Positions 86-3,126 of a stretch of DNA of 3,126 nt are shown here, piece after piece. Location of the stretch: the sequence record PZ195124.1; one strand, written 5' to 3'. The notes under the pieces were generated by a model that was not told where the DNA came from, made no database searches, and saw only the letters and a program-made list of their open reading frames with translations. Position numbers and translations under genes: made by a program. Positions within the stretch are counted from its first letter, which is position 1. Each line of letters starts with the position of its first letter. Source of the DNA: a phage.

Positions 86-1258
86 ATGTTTCCGAAGTCC
101 AATATAGACAGAAATTACAAGGTCAAGCTTGTATCTTACGATAAGAAGGGTAGGTTGGTTTCCGACGACTCTTTCGAGCAAGTCGAAAACTACCTCTTTC
201 AAAATCGTTCGAACACGTATAAACCTGGTTATCTCCGTCGTGACTTTCGAAGACCAACAAACTTTTGGAATGGCTTTCGCTATTTCAATCAGCCCATTGG
301 TACCTTCACTCGGAAACTCTCTGATGGTGGGAGACAAGTCGCCGACTATGGTATCGTGAACCCTAATAAGTTCACGGCCAACAGTCAGCACTTGGGGGAC
401 AACATGGTAATTTACCCTGGTCCCTTTTCTATAAATATTGACCAGCGTGCTTCTGTCGAAGTCCTCAATAAACTTTCGCAATCCAACCTCAATATTGGGG
501 TTGCGATTGCTGAAGCTAAGATGACTGCTTCATTACTCGCTAGACAATCTATAGCTCTCATCAGAGCCTACACTGCCGCAAGGCGCGGTAATTGGCGAGA
601 GGTGTTTTCGCAACTCCTCATCTCCGAACACCGTTTCAGAGCTCCCGCTAGGGATCTCGGAGGTCGATGGCTCGAACTGCAGTACGGTTGGTTACCTCTC
701 ATGGGTGATATGAAGGCTGCATATGATTTGCTTACGCAAACCAAATTGCCTGCTTTCATGCCTCTAAGAGTTACCCGAACCGTTGGCGGCACGCATAATT
801 ATAAAGTGCGTAACGTTGAATCTGCAGGGGATACATGGTCTTACAGCGATCGCTTGTCGGTGAATTACCGAATATGGTATTTTATCTCCGATCCGCGACT
901 CGCATGGGCCAGTTCCCTCGGGCTTCTTAACCCTTTAGAAATTTTCTGGGAAAAGACGCCCTGGTCGTTCGTAGTTGACTGGTTCTTACCTGTCGGTAAT
1001 TTGATTGAAGCCATGAGTAATCCTCTTGGTCTCGATATCATATCCGGCACGAAAACCTGGCAACTCGAATCAAAACTTAATGCGACGCTTAAGGCATCGG
1101 GTTGGTCTGGAACTGCAAAGCTGTCTGCGTACGCCAAGGCGTATGACAGGTCAACTTTCTATTCCTTCCCTACTCCTTTGCCTTATGTGAAATCTCCACT
1201 TAGTGGACTTCACTTAGCGAATGCATTAGCCTTAATTAACCAACGCCTGAAAAGGTAA
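86..1258 (+). CDS. mat: Maturation (A / assembly) protein, 390 aa
   Basis: Intact ORF from ATG 86 to TAA 1256-1258. An in-frame TGA at 56-58 closes the frame upstream and no alternative start lies between it and 86. GGAGGA precedes at 77-82. The product carries blocks I recognise from the MS2-family A protein: [81 protein letters not shown] and a C-terminal [24 protein letters not shown]. First gene in the standard mat-cp-rep order. Confidence 0.93.
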
Positions 1259-1667: not shown

Positions 1668-1858
1668 TGGGTCTGAAAGCAAAACATAAGGAAAACCTAT
1701 GTTCCGATTCACAGAGATCGAAAAGACTCTATGTATGGATCGCACTCGCGATTGTGCTATCCGATTTCACGTCTATCTTCAGTCATTGGATTTGGGGTCT
1801 TCTGATCCTCATTCTCCAGACTTTGATGGACTTGCCTACCTTCGTGATGAATGTTTAA
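1667..1858 (+). CDS. lys: Lysis protein L, 63 aa, single-pass membrane protein overprinted on the coat-replicase junction
   Basis: ORF ATG 1667-1669 to TAA 1856-1858. Its start overlaps the coat stop (UAAUG, 1665-1669) and 1699-1858 overlaps the replicase start in a different frame. The product has a basic N-terminal part (MGLKAKHKENLCSDSQRSKR) followed by a hydrophobic segment LYVWIALAIVLSDFTSIFSHWIWGLLILILQTLM with a Leu-Ser dipeptide (codons 1757-1762), as in MS2 L (LYVLIFLAIFLSKFT). No Shine-Dalgarno of its own, consistent with termination-coupled initiation. Confidence 0.85.
   Translation: MGLKAKHKENLCSDSQRSKRLYVWIALAIVLSDFTSIFSHWIWGLLILILQTLMDLPTFVMNV
1683..1703 (+). promoter_or_regulatory. 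Replicase translational operator hairpin (coat-protein binding site) containing the replicase SD and start codon
   Basis: AACAUAAGGAAAACCUAUGUU folds as lower stem 1683-1688 with 1698-1703, an unpaired A at 1689, upper stem G1690-C1697 and G1691-C1696, and loop AAAA 1692-1695. The replicase AUG (1699-1701) is in the 3' arm and AAGGA (1688-1692) acts as the SD. This matches the architecture of the MS2 operator ACAUGAGGAUUACCCAUGU (bulged A, 2-bp upper stem, 4-nt loop). Confidence 0.8.
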
Positions 1859-3126
1859 CTAAACATCCCTCACTGGGAGACAGTAATTCGGAAGCACGCC
1901 GTAAGGAATTGGCATATGCCAAACTTATGGATAGTGATCAAAGATGCAAAATCCAAAACAGCAACGGATACGACTACTCTCATATCGAGAGTGGCGTACT
2001 GAACGGTATACTCAAGACCGCTCAGGCCCTAATTGCAAACTTGCTCAAGGGTTTTGAATCTCACTTCCTGAACGATTGTTCGTTCTCCAACGGAGCCTCA
2101 CAAGGGTTCAAGTTGCAGGATGCAGCGCCGTTTAAGAAGATCGCTGGGCAAGCAACCGTTACAGCTCCTGCCTATGACATTGCCGTAGCCGCCGTTAAAA
2201 CGTGCGCGCCGTGGTATGTTTATATGCAGGAAACGTATGGTGATGAAACCAAATGGTTCCATCGGGTATACGGCAACGGTTTGTTTTCTGTTCCGAAGAA
2301 CAATAAAATAGATCGGGCTGCCTGTAAGGAGCCTGATATGAATATGTACCTTCAGAAAGGGGCGGGATCTTTTATAAGAAAACGCCTTCGCTCTGTCGGT
2401 ATAGATCTTAACGATCAAACGCGTAATCAGGAATTAGCCCGACTCGGCAGCATTGATGGTTCTCTCGCTACTATTGATCTCAGTAGCGCGAGTGATTCCA
2501 TCTCTGACCGCCTCGTTTGGGACCTGCTTCCTTCACACGTTTATTCATACCTCGCCCGCATTCGTTCATCATTCACTATGATTGATGGCCGTCTGCACAA
2601 GTGGGGTCTATTTTCTACCATGGGTAATGGCTTTACGTTTGAACTCGAGTCCATGATTTTCTGGGCTCTGAGTAAAAGCGTTATGCTGTCCATGGGTGTT
2701 ACTGGCTCATTAGGCATCTACGGTGACGATATAATCGTCCCTGTGCAGTGTGCCCCAACTCTCCTTAAGGTACTATCCGCTGTGAACTTTCTTCCTAACG
2801 AGAGGAAGACATTTACAACGGGTTACTTTCGTGAAAGTTGCGGTGCACACTACTTCAAAGGTGCCGACATGAAACCTTTTTACTGCAAGCGGCCAATGGA
2901 AACCCTTCCCGATGTCATGTTGCTTTGCAACAGGATAAGAGGTTGGCAGACCGTTGGTGGAATGTCAGATCCGCGGCTCTATCCAATTTGGAAAGAGTTC
3001 GCTGATATGATTCCGCCGAAGTTTAAGGGTGGATGCAACCTGGATCGCGATACTTACCTCGTTTCACCGGATAAACCCGGTGTTACTTTAGTTCGTGTCG
3101 CTAAGGTACGTTCTGGTTTTAACCAT
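1699..3126 (+). CDS. rep: RNA-dependent RNA polymerase (replicase beta subunit), 3'-truncated by the window edge; 476 codons present
   Basis: Hand translation from ATG 1699 to 3126 gives 476 codons with no stop: MFRFTEIEKTLCMDRTRDCAIRFHVYLQSLDLGSSDPHSPDFDGLAYLRDECLTKHPSLG ... GIYGDDIIVP ... FLPNERKTFTTGYFRESCGAHYFKG ... GGMSDPRLY. Shared blocks with the MS2 replicase include LQDAAP.KK, GNG.F.VPKNNKIDRAACKEPDMNMYLQKG, SVGIDLNDQ, GSLATIDLSSASDSISDRLVW, FSTMGNGFTFELESMIFWA, GIYGDDII, NFLPNE.KTFTTGYFRESCGAHY.KG and GGMSDPRLY. It is absent from the ORF track only because it lacks an in-window stop. Confidence 0.97.
   Translation, partial: MFRFTEIEKTLCMDRTRDCAIRFHVYLQSLDLGSSDPHSPDFDGLAYLRDECLTKHPSLGDSNSEARRKELAYAKLMDSDQRCKIQNSNGYDYSHIESGVLNGILKTAQALIANLLKGFESHFLNDCSFSNGASQGFKLQDAAPFKKIAGQATVTAPAYDIAVAAVKTCAPWYVYMQETYGDETKWFHRVYGNGLFSVPKNNKIDRAACKEPDMNMYLQKGAGSFIRKRLRSVGIDLNDQTRNQELARLGSIDGSLATIDLSSASDSISDRLVWDLLPSHVYSYLARIRSSFTMIDGRLHKWGLFSTMGNGFTFELESMIFWALSKSVMLSMGVTGSLGIYGDDIIVPVQCAPTLLKVLSAVNFLPNERKTFTTGYFRESCGAHYFKGADMKPFYCKRPMETLPDVMLLCNRIRGWQTVGGMSDPRLYPIWKEFADMIPPKFKGGCNLDRDTYLVSPDKPGVTLVRVAKVRSGFNH
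2719..2730 (+). other. Replicase catalytic motif C (YGDD)
   Basis: Codons TAC GGT GAC GAT at 2719-2730 are in the replicase frame within GIYGDDIIVP. The upstream motif-A-like IDLSSASDS (Asp codons 2476-2478 and 2494-2496) and motif-B-like STMGNGFTFELE (2614-2649) are also read directly. Confidence 0.9.

Follow-up and report, generated by a model that had tools for sequence, protein, structure and literature searches.

The window, a stretch of 3,126 nucleotides read as one strand (sequence record PZ195124.1), carries a hairpin, AACAUAAGGAAAACCUAUGUU, at positions 1683-1703, in which the start codon of the replicase gene is embedded. We regard this hairpin, with high confidence, as the translational operator of the replicase of a group II coliphage, to which a dimer of the coat protein would bind, with repression of the GA/MS2 type and a role in packaging. 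The analysis revealed the predicted structure, its location over the start codon, its exact match to the operator of phage GA, its covariation across the genus, and a coat protein of the GA type encoded in the same window. The operator is already known, since it is annotated in the GA reference genome of the same species. The original prediction had presented the hairpin as a noteworthy find; it is a textbook feature with an entry in X03869.

Phage Identity and Gene Layout

The window was compared with GenBank phage records using megablast. The only full-length matches were group II F-specific RNA coliphages, Emesvirus japonicum. The identity of the window was 92.8% to BZ13 strain DL10, 92.5% to DL20, 92.3% to GA, 85.0% to T72, and 84.7% to KU1. 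Judging by these matches, the window covers the greater part of the genome of a GA/BZ13-type group II levivirus strain. Since the nearest deposited genome (DL10) is only 92.8% identical, it looks like a distinct strain of Emesvirus japonicum. The first base of the window corresponds to position 1 of FJ483837 (BZ13 DL10) and to about base 52 of GA, and the window ends about 170 nt short of the end of the replicase gene. From these end points it follows that the window lacks the 5′ terminal hairpin and the 3′ UTR.

The features found in the window are collected in Table 1. The lysis gene starts in a TAATG overlap with the stop codon of the coat gene, and the records of GA, DL10, and DL20 have it at the same location. 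The replicase frame, which begins with the AUG at 1699-1701, spans 476 codons and stays open through the end of the window. The N-terminus of its product, MFRFTEIEKTLCMD, agrees with those of the group II replicases.

Table 1. Features of the 3,126-nt window.
Feature	Position	Strand	Basis
Maturation protein gene	86-1258	+	Pfam Phage_mat-A
Coat protein gene, 130 codons	1275-1667	+	Pfam PF01819 Levi_coat, 130 bits
Lysis protein gene, 63 codons	1667-1858	+	ORF list; Pfam PF11125 Phage_MS2_lysis, 29.3 bits
Replicase translational operator hairpin (predicted coat-protein site)	1683-1703	+	Fold, GA identity, covariation, sub-threshold RF02359
Shine-Dalgarno-like AAGGA of the replicase	1688-1692	+	Direct reading; 6 nt upstream of AUG
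Replicase beta-subunit gene, 5′ part	1699-3126	+	Pfam PF03431 RNA_replicase_B, 715 bits, E = 6e-215

Fold and Anatomy of the Hairpin

The secondary structure was predicted with RNAfold (ViennaRNA). The 21-mer 1683-1703 folds as ((((((.((....)))))))) with an energy of -4.2 kcal/mol, which corresponds to z = -2.4 against dinucleotide shuffles. The same hairpin is both the minimum-energy and the centroid structure of the segment 1675-1710, and it is the centroid of the longer segment 1660-1725. A hairpin of MS2 geometry with an AAAA loop at this place had been foretold in the original prediction, and the folding of 1675-1710 had been proposed as a check. Both the fold and the unpaired state of A1692-A1695 were borne out, as was the position of the AUG in the 3′ arm.

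The lower stem consists of 6 bp, in which 1683-1688 are paired with 1698-1703. It is followed by an unpaired A at 1689 and by a 2-bp GG/CC upper stem formed by G1690-C1697 and G1691-C1696. The four adenines of the loop occupy positions -7 to -4 when the A of the AUG is counted as +1. Thus, a single unpaired purine lies in the stem and two pairs lie under a 4-nt loop, with an A at -4 (A1695) and a purine at -7 (A1692). The hairpin surrounds the replicase start just downstream of the coat gene. The AAGGA motif is located in the 5′ arm and the upper stem, and, as it is only 6 nt from the AUG, both initiation signals are found inside the operator hairpin. In the case of the bulge, two registers are available, because either A1688 or A1689 can pair with U1698. 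The resulting bulges at -10 and -11 are isoenergetic, each at -4.2 kcal/mol and each with 25% of the ensemble. The hairpin is thermodynamically weak at this energy. It coincides with codons 6-13 of the lysis gene and reaches into the replicase gene; its sequence is therefore also constrained by two reading frames.

We also determined how often such a geometry is expected by chance. Both strands of the window were scanned for a lower stem separated by a bulged purine from a 2-bp upper stem with an RNNA loop. On the + strand exactly one site was found, the hairpin 1683-1703. Dinucleotide shuffles gave 0.46, 0.20, and 0.07 sites per window for lower stems of 4, 5, and 6 pairs, respectively. By geometry alone, the hairpin is only mildly unusual, and geometry is weak evidence against chance. 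What rules chance out is the location on the replicase start codon, the identity among the group II genomes, and the compensatory changes in distant relatives. The only other match to the relaxed geometry (4-bp lower stem) was located on the minus strand at 14-30, GACUGCAGGAAUGAGUC. This site is within the chance expectation of 0.46 per strand per shuffle.

Conservation and Covariation in Emesvirus

The operator is identical at 21/21 nt in GA, DL10, DL20, KU1, and T72, which are all five distinct sequenced genomes of group II. The same 21 nt were found in three environmental fragments from IMG/VR (L009, L010, and L013). KU1 and T72 have an insertion just upstream and a different lysis start, yet their 21 nt are unchanged. 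The flanks of the hairpin are also highly conserved within group II, and the invariance of the operator in this group could partly reflect the overlapping lysis and replicase frames.

To go beyond group II, the operators of the GA group, MS2, fr, AVE017, and the four uncultured relatives L031-L034 were aligned (Table 2). In this alignment, both sides change in three of the eight pairs, namely G-C to A-U (-11/-1), G-C to U-A (-8/-3), and A-U to U-A in the outermost pair. Paired bases were present in 90% of the alignment cells, in comparison with 20-60% when the 3′ partners were slid. The observed covariation score was reached by 2 of 500 shuffles. All 10 Emesvirus operators share the unpaired A and have A at both -7 and -4. 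These compensatory changes across Emesvirus point to the operator helix; with only five distinct operator sequences, the support is modest, though consistent.

Table 2. Operator hairpins of the relatives used in the covariation alignment.
Source	Hairpin
MS2	ACAUG A GG AUUA CC CAUGU
fr	As MS2 except loop AAUA
AVE017 (Emesvirus piscicola)	ACGUG A GG AAAA CC CAUGU
L031-L034 (four uncultured relatives)	CAUG A GU AUAA AC CAUG

The variant operators of the uncultured relatives, with their GU/AC upper stem and AUAA loop, are located at 807-827 in L031, 1675-1695 in L032, 1282-1302 in L033, and 1683-1703 in L034. The coat proteins of these relatives (~57% identity) have Asp at the column of MS2 Asn87 and Ile at the column of Tyr85. 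On the basis of these differences, L031-L034 possibly form a distinct class of coat/operator specificity.

Coat Protein and Specificity at Loop Position -5

The coat protein encoded in the window shows 95% identity to the GA coat protein, 93-96% to the coat proteins of group II, and 60% to those of MS2 and fr. It matches the solved GA capsid 1GAV (E = 6e-78) and the GA dimer 1UNA (E = 1e-76). Residues were counted with the initiator Met, which corresponds to the MS2 mature numbering. The residues V29, T45, S47, R49, T59, and K61 are common to the GA group, MS2, fr, AVE017, and L031/L034, except that position 59 is Ala in X03869. We take these to be the RNA-contact residues of MS2, which line the two adenine pockets in the MS2-operator crystal structures. 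A cognate Levi_coat protein with a conserved RNA-binding surface is thus encoded upstream of the hairpin.

Compared with the GA protein of X03869, six differences were found in the window coat: N6, T59, I79, S97, E99, and V119, in place of S, A, G, A, D, and I, respectively. Since Thr59 is common to all the other group II strains and to MS2, only the GA record has Ala59. At position 79, in the region of the FG loop, Ile is unique to the window coat; the other strains have Val and GA has Gly. It is conceivable that the window coat differs measurably from the characterised GA protein in RNA specificity or affinity, and the six differences can be named in favour of such a change, above all Thr59, as position 59 is presumably part of the MS2 adenine pocket. 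Such a coat protein would meet a hairpin with its bulge at either -10 or -11, and the two could then form a GA-type tag with slightly altered and perhaps tighter binding. The hairpin is invariant, though, Thr59 also occurs in the other group II strains, and the data give no hint of such a change, which we consider highly improbable.

The column of MS2 Asn87 holds Ser in the window coat and in all coat proteins of group II. In the small sample of available genomes, U at -5 was found only alongside Asn in this column (MS2 and fr), and A at -5 was found alongside Ser (GA group and AVE017) or Asp (L031-L034). This co-occurrence agrees with the role in the discrimination at -5 that was reportedly assigned to residue 87 by Lim, Spingola, and Peabody in 1994. 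A literature search for Asn87 together with GA gave no match. In the case of position -6, fr has A (loop AAUA) together with an MS2-like coat protein, so the difference at this position looks neutral. Mutagenesis in the Uhlenbeck laboratory is likewise said to have found any base tolerated at -6. Natural variation thus suggests that -5, and not -6, looks like the discriminating loop position. The earlier proposal that both positions affect affinity stands for -5 and falls for -6.

Neighbouring RNA Elements and Stray Motif Matches

Two further RNA elements were noted near the operator. The segment GCUUUC at 1370-1375 (coat codons ~32-34) is complementary to GAAAGC at 1675-1680, which precedes the replicase AUG by 19-24 nt. 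Neither segment varies among the six group II records, their positions are equivalent to those of GAAUGG/CCAUUC in MS2, and the pairing comprises only 6 bp. In MS2, GAAUGG/CCAUUC forms the long-range 'Min Jou' pairing, which couples the translation of replicase to that of the coat. The segments 1370-1375 and 1675-1680 are a candidate for the group II equivalent of this pairing. The second element is a stable hairpin at 1632-1658, at the end of the coat gene and before TAATG; the segment 1625-1665 has a folding energy of -13.7 kcal/mol (z = -2.6). The counterpart of this hairpin in GA, from which it differs by a few bases, is 1683-1707, for which X03869 gives the label 'pot. stem loop structure; pot. 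function in lysis gene control'.

An exact 19-mer, ACATAAGGAAAACCTATGT, was found at 7377-7395 of L012, a 36.7-kb IMG/VR contig, where its ATG opens an unrelated 323-codon ORF. The degenerate motif was also present at the starts of unrelated ORFs in other large contigs (L016, L018, L022, L023, L025, and L026). We rejected a transfer of the operator into the DNA phage represented by L012, because the degenerate pattern occurs in about 12 unrelated large contigs, in several of them at ORF starts. The position of the 19-mer ahead of unrelated ORF starts in DNA-phage contigs fits a ribosome-binding site with its start codon. The stray motif is most likely a Shine-Dalgarno sequence and an ATG within a short palindrome, with no relation to leviviruses.

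Proposed Mechanism and Alternative Explanations

Coat binding and repression in the window strain would follow the course established in work on GA and MS2. Early in infection, ribosomes would load on the AAGGA...AUG within the hairpin. As the coat protein accumulates, its dimer would bind the folded hairpin, reading the purine left unpaired in the stem along with two loop bases, A at -4 and a purine at -7. Binding would stabilise the weak helix and mask both the Shine-Dalgarno sequence and the AUG, and the synthesis of replicase would stop. The complex of coat and hairpin is probably also a high-affinity nucleation point for the packaging of the genome. The AAAA loop, with its A at -5, would be paired with a group II coat protein that has Ser at the Asn87 column and for which a pyrimidine at -5 would be unneeded. 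A hairpin of ~20 nt around the replicase start is known to bind the coat protein and to repress the synthesis of replicase, and the operator was also suggested to initiate specific encapsidation (PMC3561173). In E. coli, the GA wild-type hairpin together with the GA coat protein (GCP) represses a reporter (bioRxiv 10.1101/168625).

The hairpin could, alternatively, act only in cis and lower the initiation of replicase, for example through coat-replicase coupling, with no specific site for the coat protein. It would sequester the Shine-Dalgarno sequence and the AUG with or without a protein, and the candidate long-range pairing of GAAAGC (1675-1680) with GCUUUC in the coat gene (1370-1375) lies just upstream. 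We find this very unlikely, because a helix of -4.2 kcal/mol is too weak to block initiation alone, and the features kept throughout the genus are those contacted by the protein: the unpaired purine, the A at -4, the A at -7, and the 4-nt loop. Moreover, the GA hairpin, which is identical, is on record both as bound by the coat protein (Gott et al. 1991, cited in PMC3561173) and as mediating reporter repression by GCP (10.1101/168625). A pure accident, that is, an inverted repeat conserved only through the overlapping lysis and replicase frames, has a negligible probability. Its geometry is expected 0.07-0.46 times per shuffled window, depending on the stem length required, and the flanks are highly conserved within group II too. 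However, compensatory double changes preserve the helix in MS2, fr, AVE017, and L031-L034 despite their differing sequences, and KU1 and T72 keep the 21 nt despite their different lysis start and upstream insertion.

The main selected role of the hairpin might also be that of a packaging or assembly-initiation signal, translational repression being secondary. This is improbable, though less so than the two readings above. The start of encapsidation was suggested for the operator in PMC3561173, and the window holds a single site with the full operator geometry. Such a role is compatible with the translational operator that we prefer, since one complex could do both jobs. On the other hand, every relative that we examined carries the hairpin exactly on the replicase AUG, a placement that fits translational control and not packaging.

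Significance and Use as an RNA Tag

The hairpin matters mainly for annotation, as it marks the replicase start and the coat-protein operator in a further strain of Emesvirus japonicum. Throughout the species the operator stays the same, although the genomes are only 85-93% identical. The point specific to the window is an unchanged operator in a strain ~7% divergent from the closest deposited genomes. The use of the hairpin and its coat protein as an orthogonal RNA tag, which was proposed in the original prediction, holds in part: the pair can serve as a tag, and the idea is not new. The GA wild-type hairpin and GCP were already used alongside the MS2, PP7, and Qbeta pairs, among which the PP7 coat was reported to be fully orthogonal. 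The MS2-wt, U(-5)C, and U(-5)G sites also elicit a response from GCP (bioRxiv 10.1101/174888). Because of this published cross-talk with MS2 in reporter assays, the GA hairpin/coat pair is neither orthogonal to MS2 nor a new tool.

Comparison with Known Operators

The GA record X03869 (1986) annotates 1733-1753 as 'pot. stem loop structure; pot. binding site coat protein'. This segment corresponds to window 1683-1703 and is identical to it at 21/21 nt. The likeness to the GA operator extends over the whole hairpin, its location on the replicase AUG, the gene order, and the coat protein; the hairpin itself shows no difference, and the window strain diverges from GA by ~7-8% of bases overall. 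The prediction of a GA-type coat/operator specificity thus agrees with the identical operator, the 95% identical coat protein, and the group II genome. Gott, Wilhelm, and Uhlenbeck are said to have characterised the binding of the GA operator (Nucleic Acids Res, 1991). The GA coat protein is reported there to require a stem with an unpaired purine, an A at -4, and a purine at -7; two alternative locations of the unpaired purine are reportedly tolerated, and a pyrimidine at -5 is not strongly favoured. These requirements match the degenerate bulge register and the A at -5 seen in the window. In MS2, GA, and PRR1, coat binding depends critically on the unpaired purine and on the A located four nt before the start codon (PMC3561173, where the requirement in GA is credited to Gott et al. 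1991).

The hairpin was also compared with Rfam. In the alignment of the family RF02359, 'MS2 operator hairpin', to 1682-1702, all pairs are retained; the score is 18.1 bits, in comparison with a gathering threshold of 40 bits. The alignment covers model positions 16-36 of 36, and positions 1-15 have no match in the window. Three other hits obtained at a permissive E-value, to an lncRNA and two snoRNA families, were dismissed as chance matches (E = 3-5). The full-text literature was searched for the hairpin sequence in RNA and DNA letters, and no match was found.

In the case of fr, AVE017, and L031-L034, the operators have the same geometry and the same placement on the replicase AUG as that of the window. 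AVE017 shares the AAAA loop and the Ser at the column of residue 87, and it differs in having G-C below the bulge and a G-U wobble in the lower stem. The operator of fr is distinguished by its AAUA loop. In L031-L034, the differences lie in the GU/AC upper stem, the AUAA loop, and the Asp at the residue 87 column.

The operator of MS2/R17 resembles that of the window in the lower stem, the single unpaired A, the 2-bp GG/CC upper stem, the 4-nt loop that begins and ends with A (-7 and -4), and the placement of the AUG in the 3′ arm. The mechanism, translational repression by a coat dimer, would be alike as well. The loop is AUUA in MS2 and AAAA in the window, and the coat proteins have Asn87 and Ser, respectively. 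The pair below the bulge is G-C in MS2 and A-U in the window, and it is this A-U pair that makes the bulge ambiguous between -10 and -11. An operator of the MS2 type has a pyrimidine at -5, either U or, for the tightest binding, C, which is matched by Asn87 of the coat protein. The window has A1694 and Ser instead, and its score lies below the RF02359 threshold. By its AAAA loop, the A-U pair under the bulge, and its identity with the operators of Emesvirus japonicum, the hairpin is of the GA type. By analogy, the operator of the window would work as that of MS2 does, yet it belongs to the GA type and not to the MS2 type.
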